DNA of 64,000 nt from Thermodesulfobacteriota bacterium (lineage in GTDB: Bacteria > Desulfobacterota_D > UBA1144 > Nemesobacterales > Nemesobacteraceae). The translations under genes were made by a program, and so were the position numbers. Position 1 is the first letter of the stretch. Each line of letters begins with the position of its first letter. Location of the stretch: assembly GCA_965204665.1 (NCBI GenBank), contig OZ242002.1, positions 1,367,150-1,431,149 on the forward strand. Direction: 5' to 3'. This document shows, one piece after another, positions 11,993 through 64,000 of the stretch. Below the pieces are notes generated by a model. That model made no database searches and had not been told where the DNA came from. It was given only the letters and a program-made list of their open reading frames with translations.

Positions 11993-12231
11993 TTTCGATC
12001 TGTTGTCATGTTTACTGTTTCGTCTCGCCCTTCAGTACTCATTTCACCTTGAGCTCTACATGTGCAGAAATTGAGTTTCACCGGAGCATTCAGTATTCTG
12101 TTGTGCCGGGTAGCGGGAATTCTCACGCCCGTTGAATTTTACATGATTTCTTTTTTCTATGGACGGACAACATCTTGGAACCCGTCCTGTCCGAGCGGTT
12201 TTTCAATGCTCTTTTTCGAGGTGGATGATTA

Positions 12232-13473
12232 ATGCGTCTTAGCAGAGTTGACGAGCAGATATCCGATGCGATCCGCATGGAAACGCAGAGACAGGAATGG
12301 AAGCTTGAAATGATAGCTTCAGAGAACTATGTGAGTGAAGCTGTAATGGAGGCGACGGGGTCCGTGCTTACCAACAAGTACGCGGAAGGTCTTCCGGGAA
12401 GGCGTTATTACGGGGGATGCGAGTTCGTCGACACAGCGGAGAATCTTGCGCGGGACCGAGCTCGGAAACTTTTCGGCGCGGATGCTGTGAATGTACAACC
12501 TCACTCCGGAGCCCAGGCGAACATGGCGGTGTTTTTTTCCGCAGTAGAGCCAGGAATGACGGTTCTGGGAATGAGTCTTGACCACGGCGGACATCTTACC
12601 CATGGAAGCCCTGTCAATTTTTCCGGACGGCTCTACAACAGCGTCACTTACGGGGTTTGCAGGGAAACGGGAATAATTGATTACGATGAAGTGAGAAAAC
12701 TTGCGCGGAAGCATTCACCGGCACTTATAATAGCGGGCTGGAGCGCTTATCCTAGAGATACCGATTACGCTGAATTCAGAAATATAGCCGATCAATGCGG
12801 GGCGCTGCTGATGGCCGACATAGCCCATCCCGCGGGGCTTGTAGTAGCGGGACTGTACTCTGATCCCGTACCGCACTGTGATTTCGTTACGACAACGACT
12901 CACAAAACGCTTCGAGGACCGCGCGGCGGAATGGTGATGATGAAGCAGGAGCACAGCAGGAAAGTAAACAGCAGAGTGTTCCCGGGAACACAGGGGGGTC
13001 CTCTGATGCATGTGATAGCGGCCAAGGCTGTAGCGTTCGGGGAGGCTATGCGTCCCGAGTTTGCGGAGTATCAGCGCCGGACGGTTGCAAACGCGAGGCG
13101 TCTGGGAGAGAATCTGACCGGTGCAGGTCTTAAACTTGTTTCGGGGGGAACGGATACCCACCTGGTGCTGGTTGATCTTACCGGGACTGATTTTACCGGA
13201 CAACTTGCCGAGCAGACGCTTGAAGAAGCGGGAATAACGGTCAATAAAAACGCCATTCCGTTTGACCCGCGACCCCCTATGGTTACAAGCGGTATGAGAC
13301 TGGGAACTCCGGCTATCACCACGCGGGGAATGAGGGAGGCGGAGATTGATTCGATATCCGGTTTTATAATCAAAGCTCTTGAAAACCACGAAAACGAAAA
13401 AATTCTTTCCGGAATACGGCGGGAAGTAAAAGAACTTTGCCTGCGATTTCCCGTTTACGGGCATAGACTCTGA
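12232..13473 (+). CDS. glyA: Serine hydroxymethyltransferase
   Basis: [32 protein letters not shown], and [14 protein letters not shown] containing the PLP lysine. Confidence 0.95.
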
Positions 13474-35020: not shown

Positions 35021-36052
35021 ATGGCCAGAGCGGAAGACAAGGATAAAAGCATAGATGTGGCGATTGCGACCATAGAACAACAGTTCGGCAAAGGTTCCAT
35101 AATGAGGCTGGGCAAGGACGCTTCTCCCTCGGCGATTCCGGTTATCACCTCCGGTTCCCTCGGGCTTGATATAGCGCTTGGAGTGGGCGGCTTTCCCAGG
35201 GGGAGGATCATCGAAGTTTTCGGTCCCGAATCTTCGGGCAAAACCACTATAGCTCTTCACGCGATTGCCGAGGCGCAGAAGGCGGGCGGCATCACGGCGT
35301 TTGTCGATGCCGAGCATGCGCTTTCCACAACCTACGCGGCGAATATAGGAATCAAGGTTGACGATCTTCTGATTTCTCAGCCCGATTTCGGAGAGCAGGC
35401 GCTCGAGATAGTCGATACGCTCATAAAGAGCGGAGCCGTGGATTTGATAGTGCTTGATTCCGTTGCGGCCCTTACGCCCCGCGCGGAACTTGAAGGAGAG
35501 ATGGGAGATAAGCATGTAGGTCTTCAGGCGAGGTTGATGTCACAGGCTCTGCGGAAGATAACGGCGAACGTCAATCGCTCCAAAACCATAGTGATTTTTG
35601 TCAACCAGCTCCGTATGAAGATCGGAGTGCCGGCATATGTGAACCCCGAGACCACCACCGGGGGTAACGCTCTGCGTTTTTATTCCTCAGTCAGAATCGA
35701 TATAAGGCGCATAAGTTCTCTTAAGGACGGCGACCGCATCCTGGGTAACAGGGTGAGGGCGAAACTTGTGAAGAATAAGGTGGCGCCTCCTTTCCGCGAA
35801 GCGGAATTTGATGTTGTTTTCGGTAGAGGAATATCGAGTCTCGGAGAACTTGCGGACCTGGGAACCAAGTACGGCGTGATAACTAAAAGCGGATCCTGGT
35901 ACTCGTACGGCGGGGACAGAATAGGGCAGGGCAGGGACAACTCCAAGAACTTTCTTCGCGACAATCCGGATGTCCGGAAAAAAATAAGAGAAGAGATAAT
36001 GGACGCAAGCGGGATTTTCGCTTCGGAAGAAACTCCGCAGGAACCCAACTGA
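35021..36052 (+). CDS. recA: Recombinase RecA
   Basis: [58 protein letters not shown]. Confidence 0.97.
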
Positions 36053-36109: not shown

Positions 36110-36778
36110 ATGAACATTCTTGGAATTGAGACATCTACTTTTTCCGGGAGTGTGTCCGTATCCAGAGACGAGACCGTCCTCTGCGAGTATGTCTTCAATA
36201 CCGGTCCGAGACACAACGAGATGCTGGTTCCGACACTTGCCCGCATTATTTCAGAGTGCGGAATAAAAAAAAATGAGCTGGATGCTGTGTGCGTATCCAC
36301 CGGTCCGGGGTCGTTCACATCGCTTCGCATAGGAGTTTCCACCGCAAAAACTCTTTGTTATTCGCTGGGAACGGACCTTGCCGGGGTCTGCTCTCTTGAA
36401 GTGCTCGCTTCCTGCGCCATGTGGTCCGGCGGCGACTTATGTCTGATGATTGATGCGGGCAGAGAGGAAGTTTACTTCTCTTTTTACGACTCTGCAGTCG
36501 GCGAAATGAGCGGAGCTCGAATAACTTCCGTGAGGTCCGCGTGTGCGGAGTCGAAAGAAAAAACCGTTTTTGTCGGAAGCGGCGCGTTAATCCACAAAGA
36601 AATTATAAAGGAAGAGGTAGGGGAGAATGCTGTATTTCTTCCGTCTAATCTCAATATACCCAAGGCATCGAGTTGCGCCGAGTTGGGAAGAAAGAAGATT
36701 CTTCAAGGGAAAAAAGATGACCCTCTCACTCTTGCTCCGTTTTATCTGCGTCGTTCCGGGGCTGAACGCAATGCGTAA
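36110..36778 (+). CDS. tsaB: tRNA threonylcarbamoyladenosine biosynthesis protein TsaB
   Basis: MNILGIETST, GPGSFTSLRIGVSTAKTL. Confidence 0.85.
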   Translation: MNILGIETSTFSGSVSVSRDETVLCEYVFNTGPRHNEMLVPTLARIISECGIKKNELDAVCVSTGPGSFTSLRIGVSTAKTLCYSLGTDLAGVCSLEVLASCAMWSGGDLCLMIDAGREEVYFSFYDSAVGEMSGARITSVRSACAESKEKTVFVGSGALIHKEIIKEEVGENAVFLPSNLNIPKASSCAELGRKKILQGKKDDPLTLAPFYLRRSGAERNA

Positions 36779-37142
36779 CCGCCGGTCTGCCCCGAAAGGT
36801 TTTTTGTTGGTGAAACAGTGTGTGGGCTTGAGCAGATTCAGTTCTGCTGAAGACAGCATTTCGCGACAGGAAGATCTGAAGACATTCAGTCAGGAGAAAC
36901 ACCATTGCGGTTTTGGAGTTCACGCTCGAGCCCCTGCAGAAAGCAGCAACGATGATGACTGTTGCGCTTTAGTCGGTCTCGTGAAACACCTTGAATCTAC
37001 CTTCTGCTCATGTAATGTGGTTCGCATCTCGAAAGATTCTATATTTTCCAGTTGTCTGATTGCTGACAGATCATCGAGTCTTCTCGGCGTGAAATTTAAG
37101 ATCATGATGCGACGGATATGGTTGAGGTTGAGATAAACTAGT

Positions 37143-38312
37143 ATGATTGACCGGATAAGAGCGTGCGGAATCGGACCAATCAAGGAAGCGGACATAAGAT
37201 TCGGTGATCTGACCGTGTTTGTTGGACCACAAGCCACCGGAAAGAGCATTTTCCTGCAGTTTCTGAAACTTCTCGAAGACAAATACGCGATACACGAGAC
37301 TATGCGCAGATCCGGTCTGGTGATCAGAAATCGAGATGACCCATCCCGAGGCTTTTTCGACCTGTACTTCGGGGAGGGCATGTCCTCGATCTGGTCGGAA
37401 GGAAAAAGTCATCTGTTCTTGGGCAAGTCAAAGAAAAAAACCAAAATATCGACCTACACCCGCGTCCGTACGCCTAAAGTTCCTTCCCCGGAAAAAATGT
37501 TCTATATTCCCGCTCAACGCGTCATGAGTTTACGCGACGGCGTGCCGTATCCGTTCTCCGACTTCAAAGCGGGCGACCCGTTTGTGCTCCGGGACTTCAG
37601 CGATAAGCTCCACTACATAGTACAAAACGAAATTGGTTTTAATGAGAAAGTTTTTCCGCGGTCCCAACGGCTGGACAAAGTTTTACGGAAACCGATTGAA
37701 GAGCATGTATTCGGCGGTTTTCGCCTTCGTACTGAAATATCCGGACACCAGAGCCGTTTGGTGCTGCGCGCGGAAGCCGACACTCATCATGCTGCTCTAC
37801 CATACTTGGTCTGGTCATCCGGTCAGCGGGAATTTGTACCGCTGCTGCTCGGACTCTACTGGCTTATGCCTTCATCAAAAGTGCCTAGGCGCGGCGAACT
37901 CGAATGGGTAGTGATAGAGGAGCCCGAGATGGGACTGCATCCAAACGGCATCGGCGCCGTGATAAACCTTGTTCTGGAGTTACGACTGAGAGGCTACAGG
38001 ATTTGTCTCTCCACGCATTCATCCCACATTCTTGATATAATTTGGGCGATTCAATTCCTGCAGAAAGAGGGTGGAAATTCCGGAGATGTCGTGAAACTTC
38101 TTAACCTTCCCTCCACGCAGAAGACAAGAAGACTTGCAGGTTGTTCACTCAAAAGCGACTTCAGGACTTACTATTTCGGACGCGACGGCAAGGTTGGTGA
38201 TATATCGGGCCTCGACTCCGGCTCGGAGAATATTACCGAAGGAGGATGGGGTGGTCTGACGGAATTTTCCGGAAAAGTGGGGGATGTTGTGGCCGAAGTC
38301 GCTGAGCGATGA
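37143..38312 (+). CDS. ABC-type (AAA_15/AAA_21-like) ATPase of unknown system
   Basis: Walker A GPQATGKS, signature-like WSSGQRE, Walker B/D-loop WVVIEEPEMGLHP, H-loop LSTHSSH. 389 aa. Confidence 0.7.
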   Translation: MIDRIRACGIGPIKEADIRFGDLTVFVGPQATGKSIFLQFLKLLEDKYAIHETMRRSGLVIRNRDDPSRGFFDLYFGEGMSSIWSEGKSHLFLGKSKKKTKISTYTRVRTPKVPSPEKMFYIPAQRVMSLRDGVPYPFSDFKAGDPFVLRDFSDKLHYIVQNEIGFNEKVFPRSQRLDKVLRKPIEEHVFGGFRLRTEISGHQSRLVLRAEADTHHAALPYLVWSSGQREFVPLLLGLYWLMPSSKVPRRGELEWVVIEEPEMGLHPNGIGAVINLVLELRLRGYRICLSTHSSHILDIIWAIQFLQKEGGNSGDVVKLLNLPSTQKTRRLAGCSLKSDFRTYYFGRDGKVGDISGLDSGSENITEGGWGGLTEFSGKVGDVVAEVAER

Positions 38313-38812
38313 CCGTCCGAGAAACAATGAGTTTCGAAGATGCGGTGCGGACTGCGCGACATCCTGTCAACTGCGCATATCGGAGCGGAAAGCAGGCATT
38401 GGGTAAAAAGCACGGCAAGTCTATTCACTGCACGAATCCGCAACGATTGACCGGGAGCATCGATCTCGACCCCGCTATTAAGAGAGAACCTCGCCATGCC
38501 GATGCACCGCGTTGGGATTACGGCATAGGGTATAAACCTCCGGGAAACAAACAGCAGTGGGTAATTTGGATAGAGTTTCATCCGGCTACGACAGGGGAAG
38601 TTTCGGCGGTTCTCAAAAAGTTGCGGTGGCTGAAAGACTGGCTGAATGAAGAGGCTCGGCAACTCAAGAAAATAACTGAACGCGCCGAAAAAGATATTCG
38701 ATTTATCTGGCTTGCCGGCGGTGCCGGAATAAAAATACCGAAGAATTCTCCTCAGGCCCGGCAACTCAGCCAAAACGGTATTCGATTGAAAAAAAATCTC
38801 GAGTTGTCTTAG
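38309..38812 (+). CDS. Hypothetical 167-aa protein, translationally coupled partner of the ATPase
   Basis: Its ATG overlaps the ATPase TGA (ATGA). Basic protein with conserved-looking segments GSIDLD, RWDYGIGY and VIWIEFHPAT. No family recognised. Confidence 0.5.
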   Translation: MTVRETMSFEDAVRTARHPVNCAYRSGKQALGKKHGKSIHCTNPQRLTGSIDLDPAIKREPRHADAPRWDYGIGYKPPGNKQQWVIWIEFHPATTGEVSAVLKKLRWLKDWLNEEARQLKKITERAEKDIRFIWLAGGAGIKIPKNSPQARQLSQNGIRLKKNLELS

Positions 38813-38994
38813 TCTCAACTTCAGGGAAACAGAGAAATACCACTCGGTTATTTTTTCGCCCTTTGAGCATGATTGATGATCTTTCTGTCTCTTTACCTCG
38901 GAAGTATACAGTGAGAAAACCGAAGTGAATGTTTTGATAATTGAAGCAATTTCCACCCTCAATCTTGAAGTTGCTTTCTTTCAGTGATACATTT

Positions 38995-39022
38995 ACCCTG
39001 TTTTTTCAGGGTGGTTTTCGTT
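38995..39022 (+). terminator. Weak hairpin plus U-rich tail ~30 nt upstream of ilvB (terminator of the upstream cassette or an ilvB attenuator)
   Basis: ACCCTG-TTTTTT-CAGGGT followed by GGTTTTCGTTT. The stem is short, so confidence is low. Confidence 0.3.
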
Positions 39023-39052
39023 TAAGATCATTAGCAGGGAGATACAGTTGAA

Positions 39053-40759
39053 ATGGCCAAGATGCTAGGCGCACAGATGTTTTTTGAGACGCTTCTTCAC
39101 CAAGGTATTGATGTGGTTTTCGGACTGCCGGGAGGTTACGTTCTCAAAGTGTACGACGTGATGACCGGCTATACGGATAGAATGAAACACGTACTGGCTA
39201 GACACGAGCAGGGAGCTACGCATATGGCTGACGGATACGCCAGAGCCTCGGGCAAACCCGGAGTGGTGCTCTGTACATCGGGTCCTGCCGCCACCAACAC
39301 GGTTACCGGAATAGCGACAGCGCAGATGGACTCGTCTCCCATAGTTATTTTCACGGGACAGGTTCCGACCCAGTATCTGGGAAGCGACGCTTTCCAGGAG
39401 GCTGACCATATCGGCATAACCAGACCCTGCACGAAGCATAATTACTTGGTACGCAGAACCCGCGACCTTCCTAAAGCCATGAAGGAAGCCTTCCATATAG
39501 CCGGTACCGGAAGACCAAGCCCGGTCTTGGTGGATATGCCGAAGGATGTGCTTATAGGGGAAGACGAACTCGTTATCCCCGAAGATATAGATATTCAAGG
39601 TTATAAACCCAATGTGAGGGGAAACCCGTCTCAGATAAAAAGAGCGGTCGGGATGTTGCTCGCGGCAAAGAGGCCTGTTGTTTATTCCGGAGGCGGAGTC
39701 ATATGGTCTGATGCCACAAAGCAACTGCTGGAGTTTTGTCACAGGCTCCAGATACCGGTTGCATCAACCCTCATGGGGCTTGGAGGTTATCCGGCAAGCG
39801 ACCCGCTTTTTATAAGCATGCTCGGCATGCACGGCTCTTATGCCGCGAACATGGCGATAACCGAATCGGATCTTGTGATCTCCGTCGGCGGACGGTTTGA
39901 CGACAGGGCCACGGGAGGAAATTTCGAGGATTTCGCTCCCAACGCGCGGATTATCCACATAGACATAGACCCTTCTTCAATAGACAAGAACATAATGGTT
40001 GACTGTCCCATAGTCGGAGATGCGAAGATTGTGCTGAACCAGATACTTGAAGCTCTTCCGGGAGAAATTGATCTTGATGGGAGAGAACAGTGGCTCAGGC
40101 GGATAAAGCAATGGAGCATAGATCATCCGCTTACCTATCACCAGGGAAGCGACAGGATACTCACCACTTTCGCCATAGATACTCTTTATCAGGTCACGAA
40201 GGGAGACTCCATAATAGTTTCTGATGTCGGACAGCACCAGATGTGGGTGGCTCAGTTCTACAAGTTCGAGAGACCGAGGACGCATCTTACGTCCGGGGGA
40301 CTCGGAACTATGGGATTCAGTTTCCCCGCGGCTATGGGGGCTAAATACGCAAGACCGGACGAACGCGTCATATGCGTTGCGGGAGACGGAAGTTTCCAGA
40401 TGAATTTCCAGGAACTCGCCACCGCGGTTGAAAACAATCTCGATCTCAAGATAATCGTATTCAACAACGGTCATCATGGAATGGTAAGACAATGGCAGAC
40501 GATGTTTTTCGAGAGCAACTATTCCGCGTCCCGATTTGGGGTTCTGCCGGATTTTGTGAAGCTGGCGGAGGCGTTCGGGGCGAGAGGGTTTCGGGCGGAG
40601 AGACCGGAAGAACTTGAATCAACGCTGAGAGAGGGACTTAACGCTCCCGGGGTGGTTCTTATGGAAGTTTTAGTTGACGAGACGGAGATGGTCTACCCGA
40701 TGATAGCTCCCGGCGCGAAAATGGACGAAATGATTCTGCTTCCCGCCGACCTGGCCTGA
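39053..40759 (+). CDS. ilvB: Acetolactate synthase (biosynthetic type), large subunit
   Basis: TPP-enzyme motifs: VFGLPGG, RHEQGATHMADGYARASGKPGV, GGLGTMGFSFPAAMGAK, GDGSFQMN. Confidence 0.9.
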   Translation: MAKMLGAQMFFETLLHQGIDVVFGLPGGYVLKVYDVMTGYTDRMKHVLARHEQGATHMADGYARASGKPGVVLCTSGPAATNTVTGIATAQMDSSPIVIFTGQVPTQYLGSDAFQEADHIGITRPCTKHNYLVRRTRDLPKAMKEAFHIAGTGRPSPVLVDMPKDVLIGEDELVIPEDIDIQGYKPNVRGNPSQIKRAVGMLLAAKRPVVYSGGGVIWSDATKQLLEFCHRLQIPVASTLMGLGGYPASDPLFISMLGMHGSYAANMAITESDLVISVGGRFDDRATGGNFEDFAPNARIIHIDIDPSSIDKNIMVDCPIVGDAKIVLNQILEALPGEIDLDGREQWLRRIKQWSIDHPLTYHQGSDRILTTFAIDTLYQVTKGDSIIVSDVGQHQMWVAQFYKFERPRTHLTSGGLGTMGFSFPAAMGAKYARPDERVICVAGDGSFQMNFQELATAVENNLDLKIIVFNNGHHGMVRQWQTMFFESNYSASRFGVLPDFVKLAEAFGARGFRAERPEELESTLREGLNAPGVVLMEVLVDETEMVYPMIAPGAKMDEMILLPADLA

Positions 40760-40983: not shown

Positions 40984-43407
40984 ATGGGTTCAGAGAAGAC
41001 AGTTCAGGTGGCTCTGCCGATTTCTTCCGAGCAACTTTTCACATATTCGGTTCCGGACCATCTCATCGAAGGGCTCGCTCTGGGAAAACGGGTGTTTGTT
41101 CCCTTCGGAAATCGCAAGGCGATAGGGTACGTGGTGAAGGAAGATTCGGAGCAGGAAGTCGGTTTCAAACTGAAGGACATAATTGACATTCTGGACGAAT
41201 CCCCGCTTTTCGATGAAAAGAGGCTTGAGTTCTTCAGACGCGTTTCCGAGTATTACATGACGTCTCTGGGAGTTGTCCTGAAGTTCGCGCACCCTCTGGG
41301 TCTGGGTAAAAGCGTTGCCAGGACCGTCCGTATCACGGAGCAGGGAAAAGACCGGCTGAGTAACGGAGATTCAAGAGGTCCCGAGAAAAAAATCCTGCAG
41401 ACGCTGCTGCTCGAATCTCCGTTGCCTCTGGAGAAAGTTCTGGATCTGAGCGAAGGGATAACGATTGAGAACATAAACTCCGTTCAGAGGAAAAAATACG
41501 TGGAGTTTGATTACAGGATAGTAAGCGGCGAGAAGAAAAAGTATGAAAAAATATACAGTTCTTCCTGCGAAGCCGGAAAAATTCAGGAAGTGAAGAAAAA
41601 AACTCCCGCCAAAGGCGCCGTACTGGAGTTTATATGCGGGCACGGCCCGGTTGCGGCCGCAGAACTCAAAGAAATATTCGGCGGATTCTCATCCCATATA
41701 AAATGGCTTCTCGATAACGGGTTCGTTTCTCTGCATCTCAAAGAAATCAGAAGAGACCCTTACGGGTCTTTTGATATTAAGGAAAGCGCTCCGTCGGAAC
41801 TCACTCAAGATCAGCGGATGGCCGTTGAACGCATTACGCCGTATGTGGAGAACCAGCGGTATAGATGCTTTCTTCTCCACGGGGTCACGGGAAGCGGAAA
41901 AACCGAGGTTTACATGAGAATTGCGAGCGAGGTTGTCAGGAGAAAAAAACAGGTGCTGATCATGGTTCCGGAAATAGCGCTTACCCCGCTTCTTGTACGC
42001 AGGTTCCGCTCCCGTTTCGGTGACGTCGTATCCGTGCTTCACAGCCTCCTCAGCGAAGGTGACAGGTTCAGTGTCTGGAGGAGGATTCGGAGCGGGGACA
42101 TAAGCGTGGTGATAGGTCCGCGCTCCGCTGTTTTTGCCCCTTTCCCCTCACCCGGACTGGTGGTGGTGGACGAAGAGCACGACTCTTCTTACAAACAGAG
42201 CAGTTCCCCGTGCTACAACGCTCGAGATGCCGCCGTCATGCTCGGAAGTTTGTACCGATGCCCAGTGATTCTCGGTTCCGCCACTCCTTCGCTCGAGTCT
42301 TATGCGAACACCCTGCGGGGAAAATATGAATACCTTTCGCTTCCGGCCAGGGTCGGAAAGAGCAGACTGCCCGAGGTGAAACTCGTGGATATGAAAAACA
42401 TAAAGGAAAAGATATTCTCCCGGGCCCTTAAAGATGCTCTTTCAAGCAATTTCGCCCGCGGCGAGCAGTCGGTCTTATTTATCAACAGAAGAGGTTTTTC
42501 CAATTTCCTCGTATGCGCGGACTGCGGAGACCTTTTCAAGTGTCCGAACTGCTCGACCACTCTTACCTTTCATAAGAAAGATGTCTCCATCAGATGTCAT
42601 TACTGCGGAATCAGGGAGAAGTTCAGGAATATATGCGCAGCCTGCGGCGGGGTGTATATGGCTGCGGGGCTCGGAACCCAGAGAATCGAGGAAGAGACGA
42701 GAAAGATTCTTCCCGCCGCCGATATTTCCGTTATGGACAGGGACACCGCCGGGGGAAAGACGAAACTTCTCGACCTTTACCGGAATCTCGAGTCGGGGAA
42801 AACAGATGTTCTCATAGGAACCCAGATGATCGCCAAGGGACATGACTTGCCCGGGGTTACGCTGGTCGGAGTGGTTTCCGCCGACCATATGCTCGCCATC
42901 CCTGATTTTCGTTCGGGAGAAAGGACGTTTCAGATGCTTACCCAGGTGGCCGGAAGGACGGGAAGGGGAAAAAAACCGGGCAGGGTTATTCTGCAGACCT
43001 ACAATCCAGAACATCCTTCCGTGGAGTTTGCCGTCACGCATAACAGTTCGGGGTTTCTGGAAGAGGAGCTCGAACTCAGAAAATCACTTGATCAACCTCC
43101 CTTCACCAGGCTCGTATCCATAAGAATGAGCGGTATGAAAGAGGAGATGACAAGAATTTTCACGGAAAAAGCGAGACGAACCGCAGAGAAGCTCACACGC
43201 CCGTTTCCGCCCGGAGAGCTCAGAGTGCTGGGTCCTTCGGAAGCGCCTATATATAAAATGAAAAACAGATTCAGATGGCAGATGATTCTGGCTTCGCGTA
43301 ATATCGCCGTGCTCAGAAAATACTCACGCGTTCTTTATGATTCATTGAAAAATGATGCCGAGGGAATTAACCTTACGCTCGATATAGACCCTCATGAATT
43401 CATGTAA
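40984..43407 (+). CDS. priA: Primosomal protein N' (replication restart helicase PriA)
   Basis: GVTGSGKTEVY, VVDEEHD, and Cys-rich zinc region CADCGDLFKCPNCSTTLTFHK..RCHYCG..CAACG. Confidence 0.92.
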   Translation: MGSEKTVQVALPISSEQLFTYSVPDHLIEGLALGKRVFVPFGNRKAIGYVVKEDSEQEVGFKLKDIIDILDESPLFDEKRLEFFRRVSEYYMTSLGVVLKFAHPLGLGKSVARTVRITEQGKDRLSNGDSRGPEKKILQTLLLESPLPLEKVLDLSEGITIENINSVQRKKYVEFDYRIVSGEKKKYEKIYSSSCEAGKIQEVKKKTPAKGAVLEFICGHGPVAAAELKEIFGGFSSHIKWLLDNGFVSLHLKEIRRDPYGSFDIKESAPSELTQDQRMAVERITPYVENQRYRCFLLHGVTGSGKTEVYMRIASEVVRRKKQVLIMVPEIALTPLLVRRFRSRFGDVVSVLHSLLSEGDRFSVWRRIRSGDISVVIGPRSAVFAPFPSPGLVVVDEEHDSSYKQSSSPCYNARDAAVMLGSLYRCPVILGSATPSLESYANTLRGKYEYLSLPARVGKSRLPEVKLVDMKNIKEKIFSRALKDALSSNFARGEQSVLFINRRGFSNFLVCADCGDLFKCPNCSTTLTFHKKDVSIRCHYCGIREKFRNICAACGGVYMAAGLGTQRIEEETRKILPAADISVMDRDTAGGKTKLLDLYRNLESGKTDVLIGTQMIAKGHDLPGVTLVGVVSADHMLAIPDFRSGERTFQMLTQVAGRTGRGKKPGRVILQTYNPEHPSVEFAVTHNSSGFLEEELELRKSLDQPPFTRLVSIRMSGMKEEMTRIFTEKARRTAEKLTRPFPPGELRVLGPSEAPIYKMKNRFRWQMILASRNIAVLRKYSRVLYDSLKNDAEGINLTLDIDPHEFM

Positions 43408-51123: not shown

Positions 51124-52371
51124 ATGACCCAACTTACGTTTAGAATGCTCCGCGATGCTGTTGTCGGCGAATCGGTTGCGTTGCGCTCCCGCATGACTTT
51201 GCAACCCGCTGGAGGCGAAGGAGACAAGGTCTTCCCGCCGTCCTACAACACTGATGCTTCTTCCGCACACAAGTACGCTGTTGAGCAAAGGCGGGTTGGT
51301 GATAGGGTGACGACCACTGTGTTGCTTGATTCTGTTGCTTCGCAGGCAAACCGTGCGGAACTCGCACTGCTCGAAGGATGGGAGCGAGGTGAACTGGTAT
51401 TTCCCGTGCCCTATGTCAATTTTTCCGATGACGGGGACATGACGGACTACGAGAAACTGACTGTGTTGGAAGTGCCCCACCGGTTGGGGGATGCAATTTT
51501 CCGCGATAGCTTGCTCAACGGCACACTGTTTCGCCTGTCCGAAATCGGCCAGGCGATTACAAATGCCACGCCTCGCAACGCCACAGACATGTTTCGCTAT
51601 TCCCCGACTTCCTTGCTGTTCGGCATGTGGGACTCAACCGGTCCGAAAGGTGGACTGGGGTCCAAGTTCCAACGTGCCTATGTGTCTGAGATCGTTGGTC
51701 TTGATGCTGAGATAGGCAAGAAGGTCGGTAGTCGTCTTGATCCATTACAGATTGAGAAAGTTACCCCTGAAGACCGTGTTTACAACAGCGCGGACAAGAG
51801 CGAGGTGTGGACTGACGATCCAAATCTAGCGGAGATGGACAGGCAGAAGAAGCCCCTATATGCTTCGCGTGGTAGCAATAGAGGCGATTCCGGACAGCCA
51901 TCAAAGATCAATCACGGCAACATCCCTCCTTCAATTGACTCCCAAGCTGGCGGTGTCACAATTTCGAGCGCTCTGCAGACTACCGTGATTTCCTTTGCCG
52001 CCCTTCGCAGGCTACGGTGCAAGGGTCATTCCAGAGAAGCGGAGGTTGCTGTACACACGGCGGTTGCGGCGCTTGGGGTCGCGGCCATAGCCTACCAACA
52101 TGAAATTGACTTCGACCTTCGGTCGCGTTGTCTGCTGCTTCCGACGCATCGTCCCAAACTTGAGTTGTTACGTCGCGACGGCTCCCCCGGAGAAGTAGTA
52201 GAGGTGGACCGAACTACCTCCGCTCAAATTCTCAAAAGTGCAGCAGCGCAGGCGGAAACGGTCGGGGTCGGCTGGGAGACTGATGAAATTCAGCTCCTGC
52301 CTGCACCGAAGCTGCTGGAGTTGATTAAACGTAGCCGCAAGATATCTGCTGCCGAGCCTACGGCGGAGTGA
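51124..52371 (+). CDS. cas7: Type I-G (I-U) Cas7, Csb1/GSU0053 family
   Basis: N-terminal LQPAGGEGDKVFPPSYN and WDSTGPKGGLGSKFQRAYVSEIVG are typical of Csb1. First gene of a tightly packed cas operon. Confidence 0.8.
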   Translation: MTQLTFRMLRDAVVGESVALRSRMTLQPAGGEGDKVFPPSYNTDASSAHKYAVEQRRVGDRVTTTVLLDSVASQANRAELALLEGWERGELVFPVPYVNFSDDGDMTDYEKLTVLEVPHRLGDAIFRDSLLNGTLFRLSEIGQAITNATPRNATDMFRYSPTSLLFGMWDSTGPKGGLGSKFQRAYVSEIVGLDAEIGKKVGSRLDPLQIEKVTPEDRVYNSADKSEVWTDDPNLAEMDRQKKPLYASRGSNRGDSGQPSKINHGNIPPSIDSQAGGVTISSALQTTVISFAALRRLRCKGHSREAEVAVHTAVAALGVAAIAYQHEIDFDLRSRCLLLPTHRPKLELLRRDGSPGEVVEVDRTTSAQILKSAAAQAETVGVGWETDEIQLLPAPKLLELIKRSRKISAAEPTAE

Positions 52372-56877
<4,506 letters not shown>

Positions 56878-56881
<4 letters not shown>

Positions 56882-57822
56882 ATGGTACACATCTACTAGG
56901 GCTCGAAGGTACGAATCCGTTGGCCTTTCTCGCTGCCCTTGGATTGCAGGTGGCATTCGCAACCGAAGACAGACAACAACCTCCGCGGTTATGGTGGAGC
57001 GATGACACTGTGCCCCATGCGGTCGTGGACAAGAACTTCACCGTCGATTTAATCGTGGACCGGGCGTTGTCTGCGTTTGAGTGCTGGAAGTGTAGTCCGG
57101 CCATCAATCCAAGAAGAGAGGACGGCTCTCCAATGCCTAAGGGTGACGAACTCAAGTTGATTCCTGAAGACATCGAGACGTATCTCAATCAAGCTGTACA
57201 GTGTGCATGGAGTGGCAGTTTGGCCACTGCTCTTCTGGCTCAAGGTAGTTTGGACAACCAGGGTGTTGCGAAGCCCTCCGATTTCTACTTTACAGCAGGG
57301 CAACAAAAATTCCTAGATGTAGCTCGTAAAGTCCTTACTGCTGCCAATTGCGATGAAATCAAGAGAGGGCTCGAAGGTCCATGGGATTACAAAAGTAAAG
57401 AGTCTTCCCTTGGATGGGATGTTACTGATGACCGTGTATATGCACTCATGAGCGGTAACCCTAGTGTAGAGGATAAATTCACCAATCCTGGGCCGGAGGC
57501 ATTGGCTCTGTTGGGGCTGAGTCTGTATCCGGTCTTCGCAGGTCGAGAGCGTACAAAAACACAGGGATGCTCAGGAAAATGGAAGAGCGGCTACTACTCT
57601 TGGCCGCTGTGGTGGAAACCGGCTTCTCTGCGTGCTGTCAAATCGCTCTTAGCACATGCTTACGATCATACAGATACGACAACTTCGAATCGTCACCGCT
57701 GGTACGGTGCTTGGGGCGTATTCACTATACTCCGGTCATCAATTCGTCGAACCGACCAAGGTGGCTATGGAACATTCGGGCCGGCAGAGGTTATTTGGCA
57801 ACATACACGACAGATGGACTAA
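56878..57822 (+). CDS. Cas8u-like protein (Csb3/Csx17-related), short form
   Basis: The N-terminus HLLGLEGTNPLAFLAALGLQVAF resembles the L.GC...PL..YLKALGVLRL start of Csx17/Cas8u proteins. ATGA overlap with cas3. 314 aa. Confidence 0.55.
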
Positions 57823-57860
57823 TCTAGGTTGCCGAACTCTATACTATAAGAGTCTGTTCA

Positions 57861-59597
57861 ATGAATTATCCACGACAAGGGGAAAATGCATCGGAATCAT
57901 CAATGATCAGCAATGAACCACTTGTGCCTGCACGAATGGTCAACGAATTTGTCTACTGTCCTCGGCTTGCTTATTTAATGTGGAGCCAAGCAGAGTGGTT
58001 GGAAACGGGAGATACAGTAGAAGGTCGACGAGTTCATGCTCGTGTGGACCGTCCTAATGAACCACTCCCAGATCCTGAGATTTTGGACACAGATTCTAAA
58101 ATAGTAAGCCGGTCTCTTATGTTGTCATCCGAGAAACTGGGTGTGATCGCAAAAATTGATATAGTTGAATCGGATAGTGGGATGATAACTCCGATTGACT
58201 ACAAAAAGGGCAAAAGACCCCATGTAGCCCAAGGGGCTTACCAACCGGAACGCGTACAAGTCTGTCTTCAAGCTATGTTACTTGAGGAGCACGGTTATCA
58301 AGTTAAAGAGGGTGCGATCTGGTACGCCAAGAGCAGAGAACGTGTTCGTGTAGTGCTCGATGAAGAATTACGCGTTGACGCATGCAAGTCGTTAGCACAG
58401 CTTCGAGGTACTGTTAAGCAGGGCCGTATCCCACCTCCGTTAGAGGACAGTCCGAAGTGTCCCCGTTGTGCGCTTGTCTCCATCTGCCTTCCAGATGAAA
58501 TGGGCTTGCTCAGTGGTTTCAATTTTGCACCACGGCCGATTGCTGTTGGGGCGGATGGATGCTTGCCTCTAGTTGTCCAGTCGCAGCGTGCCCGTATTGC
58601 TAAAGAAGGTGAGACACTCAAAATTATTGATGGAGATCAGGGAAGTAAGAATGTAAGGATGATTGAGATTTCCGATGTTGCATTATACGGGAATGTCTCA
58701 ATTACCACACCTGCGCTAAGTGCTCTTATGGACAGGGAAATTCCAGTGTCTTTTCACAGTCATGGAGGATGGTTTCGTGGGATTACTCAGGGTACTGGTC
58801 ACCGCAATGTGGAAGTACGCACCGCTCAATACAAACGGAGTTTCGACACGGAGTTTTGTCTGCGTTTTTCTCGTGATTTGATCGCGGCCAAAATTGTGAA
58901 CCAGCGAACTATACTGCGTCGTAATTGGCGCGGAGAAAAAGAAAACCGTAAGATGGTGTTGGATCATCTCAAATCATCCCGTAGGTCGGCAATTGTTGCG
59001 AGCACCATGAATGAGTTGTTAGGGCATGAAGGTGATGCTGCAGCGACTTACTTTAGGGCATTTTCAAGTCTTCTGACACCACCGAGGAAAGGAGATGCCT
59101 CGGATGATACGAATGGACTAACTCGCCCATTTCACTTTAATGCTCGAAATCGACGGCCTCCAACCGATCCTGTAAACGCTATGCTGTCTCTTGCATACGC
59201 TATGCTGACTAGATATTTTACGGTATCCCTCGCTACTGTAGGGCTTGATCCTTATCGAGGTTTATTTCATGCCTCACGTTACGGAAAGCCTGCCTTAACT
59301 CTTGATCTGATGGAGCCGTTTCGCCCGCTGATTGCTGACTCCGTAGTGCTGTCTGTTGTAAACACTGGAGAGATATCGGCAAATGATTTCGTCAGCGTGT
59401 CTACAGGGACAGCGCTTACCACTTCAGGTCGCAAGCGTTTTATCGGTGCATTTGAACGGCGAATGTCTCAAGAAACTACGCACCCATTGTTTGGTTATAG
59501 GCTCAGTACAAGGCGGCTTTTACTACTTCAGGCGCGGTTGTTATGCCGTCACTTTATGGGAGAGTTACCGGCGTATCCACATTATCTCCCGCGATGA
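57861..59597 (+). CDS. cas1: Cas4-Cas1 fusion
   Basis: Cas4 part: FVYCPRLAYLMW, IDYKKGK, CPRCALVSIC (Fe-S cysteines). Cas1 part: NAMLSLAYAML, GLDPYRGLFHASRYGKPALTLDLMEPFRPLIAD. Confidence 0.9.
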   Translation: MNYPRQGENASESSMISNEPLVPARMVNEFVYCPRLAYLMWSQAEWLETGDTVEGRRVHARVDRPNEPLPDPEILDTDSKIVSRSLMLSSEKLGVIAKIDIVESDSGMITPIDYKKGKRPHVAQGAYQPERVQVCLQAMLLEEHGYQVKEGAIWYAKSRERVRVVLDEELRVDACKSLAQLRGTVKQGRIPPPLEDSPKCPRCALVSICLPDEMGLLSGFNFAPRPIAVGADGCLPLVVQSQRARIAKEGETLKIIDGDQGSKNVRMIEISDVALYGNVSITTPALSALMDREIPVSFHSHGGWFRGITQGTGHRNVEVRTAQYKRSFDTEFCLRFSRDLIAAKIVNQRTILRRNWRGEKENRKMVLDHLKSSRRSAIVASTMNELLGHEGDAAATYFRAFSSLLTPPRKGDASDDTNGLTRPFHFNARNRRPPTDPVNAMLSLAYAMLTRYFTVSLATVGLDPYRGLFHASRYGKPALTLDLMEPFRPLIADSVVLSVVNTGEISANDFVSVSTGTALTTSGRKRFIGAFERRMSQETTHPLFGYRLSTRRLLLLQARLLCRHFMGELPAYPHYLPR

Positions 59598-59905
59598 AGA
59601 TTTCAGTCCAAATGAGTGATGAACGCACTTACATAGTTATGTATGACATATCTAATAGCAAACGCTGGCGGAGTGTCTTCAAAGTTATGAACGGATTTGG
59701 TGAATGGCTTCAACTTTCAGTCTTTCAGTGTCGTTTGTCGAAGCGACGGCGTGCTGAATTGGAAACGGAGTTATGCAGAGTGATTGAGATGGGGAAGGAC
59801 CATGTTCTGATTATCGATATTGGACCGGCAAATAAGTCTGATGTTGCTGTGGTAAGTCTTGGCAAAACATATTCCGCGATTGAACGTCAAGCCATTATTG
59901 TATAA
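59594..59905 (+). CDS. cas2: Cas2
   Basis: YIVMYDISNSKRWRSVFKVMNGFGEWLQLSVFQCRLS. The start at 59594 overlaps the cas1 stop (ATGA); alternative start 59612. Confidence 0.85.
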   Translation: MKISVQMSDERTYIVMYDISNSKRWRSVFKVMNGFGEWLQLSVFQCRLSKRRRAELETELCRVIEMGKDHVLIIDIGPANKSDVAVVSLGKTYSAIERQAIIV

Positions 59906-60170
59906 TCTTGAAGTTGAACTGAGAAATAACATGCAGAGTGAAAATCTGCAAAATTCAATAAGTATGTATTGCCGATGTAATTCGAGCGGCATGGTACTGT
60001 TAAAACCCCGTGAGGCAGTCGAAATTATAAATATTGAGTTATTTCAACACCAATTGGTCTTAAAAAAACAATGTTGATGGCTATACCTTTGTTTGTTTGG
60101 TGCAAAGAAGTACTGGTGCTCGAAAACATCCGAAAATTGCCAGAATCTTTAAAGGGTTATGCTGTAAGTC
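59906..60170 (+). promoter_or_regulatory. CRISPR leader (AT-rich, between cas2 and the first repeat)
   Basis: 265-bp AT-rich non-coding stretch directly 5' of repeat 1. Repeat orientation (3' end ATTGAAGC) agrees with transcription from this side. Confidence 0.55.
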
Positions 60171-63100
60171 CCTATCCGGGGTATAATTGCCCCGGCTTCA
60201 TTGAAGCGTTTTGAAATATGCGGTTCCGTCCAGCATCGTCAGGACCCTATCCGGGGTATAATTGCCCCGGCTTCATTGAAGCTCAGTCGGAAGGAATGAA
60301 CAGGGCAACCAGAGCAAGCCTATCCGGGGTATAATTGCCCCGGCTTCATTGAAGCTATGTGGCTGGTGAGTTGATCGAGGGTGTGACGGACCCTATCCGG
60401 GGTATAATTGCCCCGGCTTCATTGAAGCGTCGAGTTTTGTGGTTTTTGCAGGCCCGGCCAGGGACCTATCCGGGGTATAATTGCCCCGGCTTCATTGAAG
60501 CTTGAAAACATCATTTCTGAATTTCCAATGGACGAAGACCTATCCGGGGTATAATTGCCCCGGCTTCATTGAAGCACATTCACGCTGATAAGCATACTCG
60601 AGCGCTACATGCCCTATCCGGGGTATAATTGCCCCGGCTTCATTGAAGCTCGCTTATGCCGGCTTTTTCATCCAGCTCTGCATACCCTATCCGGGGTATA
60701 ATTGCCCCGGCTTCATTGAAGCTTTTACTCACCAGACCACAGTCCATCCCGCCGCAAGCCTATCCGGGGTATAATTGCCCCGGCTTCATTGAAGCGACAG
60801 CTCGGCACGGAACCGAGACGGGTGCTGGAAACCCTATCCGGGGTATAATTGCCCCGGCTTCATTGAAGCACCCATGACAAAAAATTATTTCCGAAGACGG
60901 AACCCCCCTATCCGGGGTATAATTGCCCCGGCTTCATTGAAGCGAAGTGGTGAGAGCGGACGCTTACGATATCGCGAGCCCTATCCGGGGTATAATTGCC
61001 CCGGCTTCATTGAAGCGAAAGTTTTTCAAAAATATCCTGAAGGAGATCGCTCACCCTATCCGGGGTATAATTGCCCCGGCTTCATTGAAGCCTTTCCTTG
61101 CCCGCCTTCGTTCTTGCGATCGTCTCCCCTATCCGGGGTATAATTGCCCCGGCTTCATTGAAGCCAAGCTCCATAACCAGCTCTGCCAGTTCGGGGTAGG
61201 GCCCTATCCGGGGTATAATTGCCCCGGCTTCATTGAAGCTAGCTTACATAAGCACCTACCGTCTTCAATCCGCGCCTATCCGGGGTATAATTGCCCCGGC
61301 TTCATTGAAGCTTATATTGCTGACATATGCCTCCGCCTGCTCCCGCGCCTATCCGGGGTATAATTGCCCCGGCTTCATTGAAGCCGCGTCGCATCATCGG
61401 AGTACGCTTTCGAGAACGGCGGACCTATCCGGGGTATAATTGCCCCGGCTTCATTGAAGCCGCGTCGCATCATCGGAGTACGCTTTCGAGAACGGCGGAC
61501 CTATCCGGGGTATAATTGCCCCGGCTTCATTGAAGCTGTCTCAACCTTCTACCTGTGGACTCCAGATAACCCACCTATCCGGGGTATAATTGCCCCGGCT
61601 TCATTGAAGCCAAAGATGCGATGAGAGCTTTCAATCCGCAGACCAGCCTATCCGGGGTATAATTGCCCCGGCTTCATTGAAGCGACTAAAAAAGTCATCG
61701 GCACGATCGCTCGTGATCGCCTATCCGGGGTATAATTGCCCCGGCTTCATTGAAGCGTTTTCATCCGCTTCCAGGTAATTTCCGAAAACGTACCTATCCG
61801 GGGTATAATTGCCCCGGCTTCATTGAAGCATATGAGTATACCATTGCCCCCACTCCGGTGGGGATTCCTATCCGGGGTATAATTGCCCCGGCTTCATTGA
61901 AGCATGGAAAGAACTCATCGAAGAGTTCAAACTGCCTGACCTATCCGGGGTATAATTGCCCCGGCTTCATTGAAGCATACGATATTCCCGAGCGGACTGA
62001 TGAAGGTCACGTGCCTATCCGGGGTATAATTGCCCCGGCTTCATTGAAGCAGAAGGATGCGGTGGGGCTCCGTCACGAATACGTAGACCTATCCGGGGTA
62101 TAATTGCCCCGGCTTCATTGAAGCCTATATACGGAGAAGAAGGAAAAAAGTACAGAGAAGCCTATCCGGGGTATAATTGCCCCGGCTTCATTGAAGCTCG
62201 ACTGCTTCCCCGGCAATGTCGATTTGAGTCGTCCCTATCCGGGGTATAATTGCCCCGGCTTCATTGAAGCGAGACCTCCATATAACCGACTTCGAACTTC
62301 GAAATGCCTATCCGGGGTATAATTGCCCCGGCTTCATTGAAGCAAGTCCGGGCGGTGAACAAAGAAGGGCAGAGCCCATCCTATCCGGGGTATAATTGCC
62401 CCGGCTTCATTGAAGCATCTCCGTGATGACGGGATTGGAAGTATCTTCGCCGTACCTATCCGGGGTATAATTGCCCCGGCTTCATTGAAGCTAAACGCAG
62501 ATGACATCGAAAGAATACGGCACGATGCCCTATCCGGGGTATAATTGCCCCGGCTTCATTGAAGCCCAGCGTCCAAACCGAATATATCGCTAAAGTGACG
62601 AACCTATCCGGGGTATAATTGCCCCGGCTTCATTGAAGCGAACCGTGCGCGCAACACATGGAGATGGCTTGAGATCCTATCCGGGGTATAATTGCCCCGG
62701 CTTCATTGAAGCGTCAAATGCGAGTGGTATCTGGACGGCAAAAAGGTAACCTATCCGGGGTATAATTGCCCCGGCTTCATTGAAGCGGAATCGAAAAAGA
62801 CCCTGTCGTTTACGACATTCTGACCTATCCGGGGTATAATTGCCCCGGCTTCATTGAAGCTAGTTTATCGATTCCGATTCGAACTTGCCGACCTGACCTA
62901 TCCGGGGTATAATTGCCCCGTCTTCATTGAAGCGCATAGGCTCTGTATGTCGGATCCACCGCATCATCGGCCCTATCCGGGGTATAATTGCCCCGGCTTC
63001 ATTGAAGCGAGAAAATATTCGGAGCCAGCAACCCGTATCTGGACCTATCCGGGGTATAATTGCCCCGGCTTCATTGAAGCCTCGTACAGATGCGCATCAA

Positions 63101-64000
63101 CCGGCCGAAGACTGGCCTATCCGGGGTATAATTGCCCCGGCTTCATTGAAGCGATACAGATAACGAACGAACTTGCATCGGAAGCGATCCTATCCGGGGT
63201 ATAATTGCCCCGGCTTCATTGAAGCCATTTAAGTTCGTCATCTTGCGACCTCCTTTATTGACCTATCCGGGGTATAATTGCCCCGGCTTCATTGAAGCGT
63301 CTGGCATGTGGCGCCCATGACGCAGGACGTGGCGGCCTATCCGGGGTATAATTGCCCCGGCTTCATTGAAGCATATTTGATTACGCTTGGCTGCTCATAG
63401 CCTTCGTACCTATCCGGGGTATAATTGCCCCGGCTTCATTGAAGCCGTCAGATATGTCGGCCGGCAACCGTCCCCTGCCAACCTATCCGGGGTATAATTG
63501 CCCCGGCTTCATTGAAGCGATATCTACAACCGCGCGCGTAGCGTCCTCGCCGAACCTATCCGGGGTATAATTGCCCCGGCTTCATTGAAGCATACTTTCC
63601 GGCGATATTTCGCGGGCGGTCGGAAGCCTATCCGGGGTATAATTGCCCCGGCTTCATTGAAGCCCAGGAGTGCCGGCAAAACCCCACGTGCCGGCAGGAC
63701 CTATCCGGGGTATAATTGCCCCGGCTTCATTGAAGCATCTCCATATTGTTTTGTTCTCGGAACAAGTTCGTCCCTATCCGGGGTATAATTGCCCCGGCTT
63801 CATTGAAGCGTAGAATAGACAGCCTCATTATTGAACTTGACGAAGACCTATCCGGGGTATAATTGCCCCGGCTTCATTGAAGCATCTCCATATTGTTTTG
63901 TTCTCGGAACAAGTTCGTCCCTATCCGGGGTATAATTGCCCCGGCTTCATTGAAGCGTAGAATAGACAGCCTCATTATTGAACTTGACGAAGACCTATCC
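60171..64000 (+). CRISPR. CRISPR array: 52 complete 37-bp repeats (CCTATCCGGGGTATAATTGCCCCGGCTTCATTGAAGC) plus one truncated by the window end; spacers 35-39 bp
   Basis: Repeats counted one by one (first 60171-60207, last complete 63920-63956, partial from 63994). Period 72-76 bp. One variant repeat at 62897-62933. Confidence 0.99.

Follow-up and report, generated by a model that had tools for sequence, protein, structure and literature searches.

A pair of overlapping genes lies between tsaB and ilvB in a 64,000-nucleotide (nt) stretch of contig OZ242002.1 from a Thermodesulfobacteriota bacterium (hereafter, the window), and raises the question of whether it represents a defence system that had escaped description. 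The upstream gene (gene A) encodes an ATPase and the downstream gene (gene B) a small basic protein, and an earlier reading of the sequence (the original prediction) had proposed that the two form an undescribed antiphage-type system. We found that the cassette is, with near certainty on the evidence of profile matches, a member of PDC-M56, a candidate family of the PADLOC database. The pair is thus already named and catalogued, yet uncharacterised, and the claim of an undescribed system falls.

Membership of the cassette in PDC-M56

The cassette consists of the following two genes:

Gene A (open reading frame, ORF, A): 37143-38312, plus strand, 389 amino acids (aa), ABC-type PtuA-like AAA_21/AAA_15 ATPase, corresponding to PADLOC PDC-M56A
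Gene B (ORF B): 38309-38812, plus strand, 167-aa basic protein, corresponding to PADLOC PDC-M56B, predicted PD-(D/E)xK-like effector

The two frames overlap in an ATGA, in which the TGA stop of A occupies 38310-38312 and the ATG start of B 38309-38311. Both ORFs with their coordinates, the motifs of A and this overlap were all present as the original prediction had given them, and the hidden Markov model E-values obtained for the two proteins lie far beyond chance. The true start of B may be located slightly downstream, at nt 38327, giving a protein of 161 aa, because this is where its homologues begin: a methionine at the position equivalent to M7 was present in 87% of 256 B homologues. In homologous loci, a start at the M7-equivalent yields a 4-bp overlap with A.

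When compared with the models of PADLOC-DB v2, protein A matched PDC-M56A (E = 2.7e-133, 442.7 bits, residues 5-387 on model positions 4-378 of 382) and protein B matched PDC-M56B (E = 1.8e-42, 142.8 bits, residues 5-166 on model positions 4-150 of 151), the latter being the sole PADLOC model matched by B. The window also has the arrangement that defines PDC-M56, with the two genes side by side on the same strand and A preceding B (A>>B). Because both proteins match the PDC-M56 models over their full length, the pair cannot be regarded as undescribed. The earlier reader had seen correctly what the sequence contains and was also right about the kind of system, but not about its being new. That reader had also allowed that the pair might prove to be an already named system, and this is what we found in spirit, although the name is that of a candidate only and carries no assigned effector fold.

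The acronym PDC stands for phage defence candidate, and 145 such cassettes were reported by Payne et al. 2024 (bioRxiv 10.1101/2024.01.29.577857), who derived them from genes embedded in BREX, DISARM or type I restriction-modification loci and entered them in PADLOC explicitly as untested candidates. Table S8 of that study contains a row in which CAS_00181, defined as FAM_00005>>FAM_02395, is annotated "Assign as candidate PDC-M56", FAM_00005 being a broad ABC-ATPase family that is also used for HEC-01, PDC-M07 and PDC-M55 (bioRxiv 10.1101/2024.01.29.577857). In the accessible part of the same source, the PDC-M56 listing gives component B neither a fold nor a function and comes with no experiment (bioRxiv 10.1101/2024.01.29.577857). 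PDC-M56 was named in no main text of the literature searched, in which we found no later renamed equivalent either.

An ABC-type ATPase and a predicted nuclease

The original prediction had assigned A to the AAA_15/AAA_21 type of ABC ATPases, and Pfam confirmed this assignment (AAA_21, 1.4e-15; AAA_15, 1.3e-12). Neither NCBIfam nor PHROGs contained anything specific for A, and a sequence search of solved structures was uninformative, with ArtP (6e-4) and OLD (5e-3) as the best matches. The diagnostic motifs, all read in translation, are:

Walker A, GPQATGKS: residues 28-35, nt 37224-37247, plus strand
Signature, WSSGQRE: residues 224-230, nt 37812-37832, plus strand
Walker B, WVVIEEPEMGLHP: residues 255-267, nt 37905-37943, plus strand
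H-loop, LSTHSSH: residues 289-295, nt 38007-38027, plus strand

These four motifs were invariant or nearly so in 39 aligned homologues. The AlphaFold (AF2) model of A was of moderate quality (predicted local distance difference test, pLDDT, 70.9; predicted template-modelling score, pTM, 0.76), with a confident ATPase core and poorly defined inserts at 126-170, 192-229 and 360-372. Comparison of this model with solved structures returned Septu PtuA as the nearest fold (8eea, 8ee4 and 8sux; E from 6e-7 to 7e-6, probability 1.00, template-modelling (TM) score ~0.4), the top match being 8eea_C (E = 6.1e-7, probability 1.00). The next matches were the retron-associated PtuA proteins (Ec78/Eco7 and Ec83), the OLD-type effector of retron Eco8 and an SMC head; taken together, the Septu and retron-associated PtuA matches span E-values from 6e-7 to 1e-4, all with probability 1.00. 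These results support placing A among the ABC/SMC-like ATPases, in the class that Septu, PARIS and Gabija also employ. We also noted an invariant motif near the C-terminus, GWGG-x-T-x-FS (residues 368-376, nt 38244-38270), which lies partly in the poorly modelled loop 360-372, before the last helix, and could form an interface with B or with another A subunit.

Protein B, which is very basic (isoelectric point 10.1), matched no Pfam domain and no NCBIfam or PHROG family, and a sequence search of solved structures gave only spurious matches to peptidase B. In agreement with the original prediction, no HNH, TOPRIM/DUF4435 or RloB signature appeared in the Pfam, PADLOC, NCBIfam and PHROG searches. 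The earlier reader had proposed to predict the structure of B and to compare it with nuclease folds using Foldseek, and this analysis returned mostly PD-(D/E)xK matches, each of them individually weak. The AF2 model, built on a 53-sequence alignment, was very confident (pLDDT 95.9, pTM 0.90). Its best Foldseek match was the Hachiman protein HamA (E = 0.037, TM ~0.3), and at least 19 of the top 22 matches in the PDB were nucleases of the restriction-endonuclease, or PD-(D/E)xK, fold, with HamA, FokI, BamHI, AgeI, Card1, MspJI, SwaI, BsaWI, TnsA, T7 endonuclease I and PaqCI among them. Fold matches in a viral library were VRR-NUC, DUF2726, Mrr-like proteins, Cas4 and UL24. In the AF2 model the secondary-structure elements are predicted to follow the order alpha-beta-beta-beta-alpha-beta, which is canonical for the PD-(D/E)xK core, with D70 where strand 71-75 begins, E89-x-H91 within strand 84-93 and K104 in the helix after it.

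Conservation across the 256 B homologues, which range from 31 to 100% identity, was concentrated in the same residues:

S50: nt 38456-38458, plus strand, conserved in 100% of homologues
D70: nt 38516-38518, plus strand, 100%
E89: nt 38573-38575, plus strand, 99%
H91: nt 38579-38581, plus strand, 100%
K104: nt 38618-38620, plus strand, 99.6%

The only two hints of function that had been picked out in B from sequence, GSIDLD and VIWIEFH, contain family-invariant residues, S50 and D54 in the former and E89 and H91 in the latter. The statement that B has no textbook PD-(D/E)xK signature is better recast as a variant signature, D...ExH...K, on a PD-(D/E)xK-like predicted fold. We infer that B may have an active site of a divergent PD-(D/E)xK type, with histidine at the lysine position and a putative pocket made up of S50, D70, E89-x-H91 and K104. 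Two domain fusions found among the homologues were uninformative: P0162, in which a truncated A is joined to B, and P0211, a chimera carrying only part of B.

Insertion at tsaB-ilvB, distribution and neighbourhood

The original prediction had described the pair as a small insertion between core genes. The surroundings of the cassette in the window are:

recA: 35021-36052, upstream side of the cassette
tsaB: 36110-36778, upstream neighbour of A
Upstream non-coding spacer, in the inserted segment: 36779-37142, no strand, 364 bp
Downstream non-coding spacer, final stretch of the insertion: 38813-38962, no strand, no counterpart in empty sites
Native ilvB promoter and leader, outside the cassette: 38963-39052, plus strand, kept in L021, L022 and L023, right-hand boundary of the insertion
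ilvB: 39053-40759, downstream neighbour of B
priA: 40984-43407, downstream side of the cassette

The non-coding DNA from B to ilvB amounts to 240 bp (38813-39052), so that the pair is flanked by 364 and 240 bp, and empty sites were found in three related metagenomic contigs (L021, L022 and L023), which bears out the description. These contigs keep the order cinA-recA-tsaB-ilvB-priA without A or B and have a tsaB-ilvB gap of ~135 bp; the window shares with them 84% identity in RecA, 90% in IlvB, 70% in PriA and 70% in TsaB. Homology to the empty-site intergenic region restarts at TCTTGAAGTTG, nt 38963, and runs by way of a conserved hairpin and the ribosome-binding region to the ilvB ATG. The leader blocks kept in L021-L023 are TCTTGAAGTTG, a hairpin followed by a T-run at 38993-39014, and TTTAAGAT..CAGGGAGATA before the ATG. 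A segment of ~2.2 kb (36779-38962) thus stands in place of ~40 nt of the empty site. Because the related contigs keep the flanking order with the short gap and neither gene, the cassette is an indel of ~2.2 kb that was gained or lost as a unit. The hairpin with its T-run lies ~40 nt upstream of the ilvB start, and the empty-site relatives have one in the corresponding place; it may act as an attenuator, or as a terminator that would also halt read-through from the cassette.

The upstream spacer presumably carries the cassette promoter; it has no counterpart in the empty sites L021-L023, and a scan of it detected no sigma-70-like site or promoter consensus. Neither spacer was conserved in 11 other loci, Rfam gave no match in either, and their predicted RNA folding was not unusual (upstream z +1.14). 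An imperfect 31-nt direct repeat (37095-37125 and 39021-39051, 71% identity, with an exact 11-mer, TTTAAGATCAT) brackets the cassette. It was rejected as a target duplication left by the insertion for three reasons: its right copy is native ilvB leader kept in the empty sites, the empty site has nothing homologous to the DNA on the left side of the first copy, and a single 11-mer match within 2.8 kb is close to chance expectation. The first copy may be a chance match.

To what extent the two genes travel together was examined in databases. A word-indexed search gave 128 clusters of B homologues, all annotated as hypothetical and without Pfam domains, and a profile search of 1.84 billion representatives gave 1,205 B matches at E <=1e-3, 230 of them at <=1e-30, so that the family comprises at least 1,205 clusters at 50% identity. 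Nearly all B homologues found by profile stand alone and measure 145-180 aa. Of nine reference-genome loci, eight have a homologue of A directly upstream of B, and the ninth ends at a contig edge; the same arrangement was present in every metagenomic context examined and in the one plasmid found. Co-occurrence of the genes, the lack of which would have counted against the original prediction, is consequently seen wherever neighbouring DNA is present. Hosts belong to at least six phyla and include Thermodesulfobacteriota, Alpha- and Gammaproteobacteria, Spirochaetia, Geobacter, Nitrospinota and Verrucomicrobiota; such a patchy spread is characteristic of accessory genes that move horizontally. 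Purifying selection acts on both genes: the ratio of non-synonymous to synonymous substitution rates (dN/dS) is 0.10-0.24 in A and 0.14-0.22 in B.

Several individual loci deserve mention. One copy is carried by the MOBF mobilizable plasmid CP007054.1 of Opitutaceae TAV5 (L036), where a TrwC relaxase gene lies directly upstream of the B homologue on the opposite strand. This B homologue (L036 8240-8737; 91095-91592 of the record) is absent from the PLSDB gene table, in which the adjacent A gene is listed as OPIT5_00420. At L037 (9155-9854), A is intact and B is a pseudogene, with residues 2-79 and 99-158 split by an insertion of ~290 bp and a frameshift. Loci L011 and L038 occupy the same syntenic site, and their A genes differ with a dS of 0.12 (95% aa identity), whereas the adjacent B genes differ with a dS of 0.55 (85% aa identity), a contrast that suggests recombination or replacement within the cassette.

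We then considered the genes around the pair, in a set of ~16 distinct contexts. None of the 20 genes directly next to the pair in six reference-genome loci matched a PADLOC model, and matches to "mad3", "mad8" and "SspH" near homologues were rejected as generic ABC-transporter or FtsK-type ATPases. In several unrelated contexts, genes of DNA repair or damage tolerance occur near the pair, at a distance of up to ~4 genes. The window has recA and priA, Nitrospinota L009 has recA (11884-12903) two genes away, and L010 has polA; immediately downstream of the pair lie SRAP/YedK with an AlkZ-like glycosylase in L017 (10508-12755) and a dinB-type Y-family polymerase in L018-20 (L018 10519-11811). 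HIRAN and a WYL regulator are found in L034 (5509-7083), and umuD-umuC on plasmid CP007054 (L036 2683-4389). This category was defined after viewing the data, and a prediction was then fixed, namely that at least two of four further contexts would contain a repair gene. In this small and weak check it did not hold: L037, the sole context not seen before, lacked repair genes, whereas L038 and L039 turned out to share the context of L011, in which repair genes were already known to be missing. In addition, a birthday-type estimate indicated that one universal gene, recA, recurring among the ~110 sampled neighbours is expected by chance. The association with DNA repair was thus rejected as a finding and kept as a rival explanation of low probability.

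The window also contains a complete type I-G (formerly I-U) CRISPR-Cas locus:

Type I-G CRISPR-Cas locus: 51124-64000 (window end)
cas7g: 51124-52371
cas5/6g: 52372-54066
cas3g: 54059-56881
cas8g: 56878-57822
cas4-cas1 fusion: 57861-59597
CRISPR array: 60171 to the window end (the array runs on), at least 52 repeats, repeat CCTATCCGGGGTATAATTGCCCCGGCTTCATTGAAGC, period 73-76

The array contains one exact duplication of a repeat-spacer unit (61348-61423 and 61424-61499).

Proposed mechanism, rival explanations and related systems

In the mechanism that we favour, A would most likely form ATP-dependent dimers or higher oligomers and serve as both sensor and scaffold, and B would most likely be a nuclease effector held in check or recruited by A. 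On sensing a phage or another invading element, A would license B to cut nucleic acid, either DNA or, as in Septu and PARIS, tRNA, and translational coupling through the overlap would produce the two proteins in a fixed proportion. The logic of an ATPase that controls a nuclease has been proven for Septu PtuAB, PARIS AriAB and HEC-02, the last of which couples an ABC ATPase with a NERD PD-(D/E)xK nuclease and needs both genes for defence. Septu is reported to cleave tRNA-Tyr, and the PtuAB of retron-Eco7 to degrade host tRNA-Tyr on infection (PMC13096335, PMC12673091). The model also draws on the full-length PDC-M56 matches, the intact motifs and PtuA-like fold of A, the confident model of B with its mostly PD-(D/E)xK matches, the conserved residues and high isoelectric point of B, the constant adjacency of the two genes and the empty site in relatives. 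Seven of nine tested HEC candidates defended (Payne et al., bioRxiv 10.1101/2024.01.29.577857), and in another study four of eight randomly chosen PADLOC candidates protected. On the basis of these published success rates, we consider that the model as a whole, with a PDC-M56 ATPase as sensor and scaffold, a nuclease effector under its control and an anti-phage role, has slightly better than an even chance of being right.

A number of observations weigh against this model. About half of the PADLOC candidates tested so far showed no protection, and no experiment on PDC-M56 was found in the literature searched. No copy was detected in 50,697 phage genomes nor in 2.9 million IMG/VR viral contigs, and one alphaproteobacterial clade (L011-13, L038 and L039) holds the cassette at a fixed syntenic position. 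Signs of mobility are also lacking in the window, where the cassette has the same GC content as its flanks (0.49-0.54) and is accompanied by no tRNA in the window, no integrase nearby and no target duplication. In the ~16 contexts the pair nearly always has only housekeeping genes around it, and only two of them contain defence neighbours: in L004, a Fic-domain PDC-S24 protein (3e-189) lies two genes downstream of the pair, and in L037, an AbiEii/AbiEi module lies directly downstream of the copy with the B pseudogene, the upstream gene having DruA and transposase-family Pfam matches. The nearest defence locus in the window is the type I-G CRISPR-Cas locus, which begins 12.3 kb and 7 ORFs downstream of the cassette. 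As for B, no Foldseek match had an E-value below 1e-3 and TM-scores were ~0.3; the lysine position of (D/E)xK is held by the invariant H91, which makes the chemistry uncertain, and it is formally possible to read S50, D70 and H91 equally as a Ser-His-Asp set. The weak association with defence genes neither backs nor refutes a defence role, because it fits the pattern reported for embedding-derived candidates, which generally show weak defence association (Payne et al., bioRxiv 10.1101/2024.01.29.577857). The original prediction had also raised the possibility of a universally conserved housekeeping locus without links to defence islands; the cassette is absent from close relatives, and its link to defence islands is weak in the sampled contexts.

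The uncertainty about B leads to an explanation that we consider unlikely, in which B would be no nuclease but a partner with another catalytic activity or none, built on a restriction-endonuclease-like scaffold, for example a nucleic-acid-binding specificity subunit or a Ser50-His91-Asp70 hydrolase, and the ATPase would be the effector. The replacement of the motif lysine by an invariant histidine and the presence of an invariant serine agree with it, as does the failure to obtain a single significant fold match or a match to any Pfam nuclease family. However, five polar residues that stay 99-100% conserved down to 31% identity argue for catalysis, D70, E89 and H91 occupy the canonical strand positions of PD-(D/E)xK enzymes, and the proven partners of this class of ATPase are all nucleases. 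True nucleases also tolerate variants at the lysine position, such as glutamate in BamHI and histidine residues in Vsr. A different view of the same two proteins, which we hold to be distinctly unlikely, is that of a selfish addiction module of the toxin-antitoxin kind, with B as a toxic nuclease that A neutralises and no dedicated immune role. Such a module would be in keeping with the compactness and translational coupling of the two-gene cassette, its movement as a unit and its solitary position, and also with the small size and strong basicity of B, the copy on a mobilizable plasmid beside a relaxase gene and the broken B with intact A at L037, which is the order of decay expected if B were a toxin. 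The opposite decay is seen in P0162, where a truncated A is fused to an intact B, and a 389-aa ABC ATPase with fully conserved catalytic motifs exceeds what an antitoxin needs; moreover, this explanation overlaps with the favoured model in that many abortive-infection systems behave like toxin-antitoxin pairs.

The neighbourhood data lend themselves to two further explanations. The pair might be a repair-associated ATPase-nuclease module in the manner of SbcCD, RecN or OLD, in which A would recognise lesions or abnormal DNA for processing by B with no dedicated anti-phage function. The repair and tolerance genes near the pair in unrelated contexts speak for it, together with the solitary position of most copies in housekeeping DNA and the stable inheritance of some. 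Nevertheless, the repair category was post hoc and its out-of-sample prediction failed, the recurrence of recA is what the birthday-type estimate anticipates, no LexA-box-like motif was noticed on reading the upstream regions, which are not conserved, and the absence of the cassette from the closest relatives implies that it is not a core repair function, all of which leaves this explanation very unlikely. A bolder variant, to which we assign a clearly low probability, is that B founds a new catalytic variant of the restriction-endonuclease fold (Ser/Asp/Glu-x-His/Lys) and that the pair is a sentinel triggered by damage rather than cued by phage, mostly solitary and sometimes vertically inherited; this would explain why recA, Y-family polymerases, SRAP and AlkZ are found nearby and defence genes almost never.

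If PDC-M56 does protect, it would add an effector of ~160 aa, restriction-endonuclease-like and with an unusual ExH, to the nuclease defences controlled by ABC ATPases, of which Septu, PARIS, Gabija, Lamassu and HEC-01 to HEC-04 are comparable examples. With ~1.7 kb of coding DNA and a confident model of B, the cassette is tractable for studying how an ABC ATPase licenses a nuclease, and the occupied and empty tsaB-ilvB sites offer a natural isogenic comparison. For component B, our analysis adds to the catalogue entry a predicted fold and a set of candidate catalytic residues; for A it adds the closest structural relative, and for the family its size and an assessment of its genomic context. 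One more candidate that joins an ABC ATPase to a nuclease will not surprise specialists, and the pair is a reasonable experimental target rather than a discovery; the practical gain is that it no longer needs to be reported as new.

Among characterised systems, the fold of A is nearest to PtuA, and Septu, like the cassette, is a two-gene operon with an ATPase followed by a small nuclease, which in the cassette is a predicted one; yet PtuB is an HNH protein, whereas B has no HNH or PtuB match in Pfam or PADLOC and its fold matches are of the PD-(D/E)xK type, no PtuA model is among the best 25 PADLOC matches of A, and the TM-score to PtuA is only ~0.4. In contrast to the retron-associated PtuAB systems (Ec78/Eco7 and Ec83), no retron reverse transcriptase or non-coding RNA is found near the window pair. 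With PARIS and HEC-01, A shares the broad AAA_21/AAA_15 family (AriA models, 1e-15; HEC-01A, 2e-14), but their effectors are TOPRIM/DUF4435 proteins and B has no DUF4435, TOPRIM or AriB match. Gabija and OLD have a TOPRIM nuclease domain fused to the ATPase, whereas A has 389 aa and no TOPRIM domain, and its similarity to the GajA and Old profiles is confined to the Walker B/D-loop region at ~255-298; the UvrD-like GajB of Gabija has no equivalent either, as no helicase gene adjoins the pair. HEC-02 is alike in having an ABC ATPase followed by a separate protein of the PD-(D/E)xK superfamily, to which B would putatively belong, and in having been nominated by the same guilt-by-embedding approach; nonetheless, A matches the HEC-02A models weakly (E ~2e-7), B has no HEC-02B or Pfam NERD match, and B has ExH where NERD has (D/E/Q)xK. 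For B itself, the best though weak fold matches are HamA, BamHI, the cleavage domain of FokI, T7 endonuclease I and VRR-NUC, with which it would share the alpha-beta-beta-beta-alpha-beta core, an acidic residue opening strand 2 and an E-x-(K/H) in strand 3; it has no sequence similarity to them, its histidine replaces their catalytic lysine, and the partner of HamA in Hachiman is a helicase and not an ABC ATPase. With PDC-M56, finally, the window pair is the same at the family level, without any difference.

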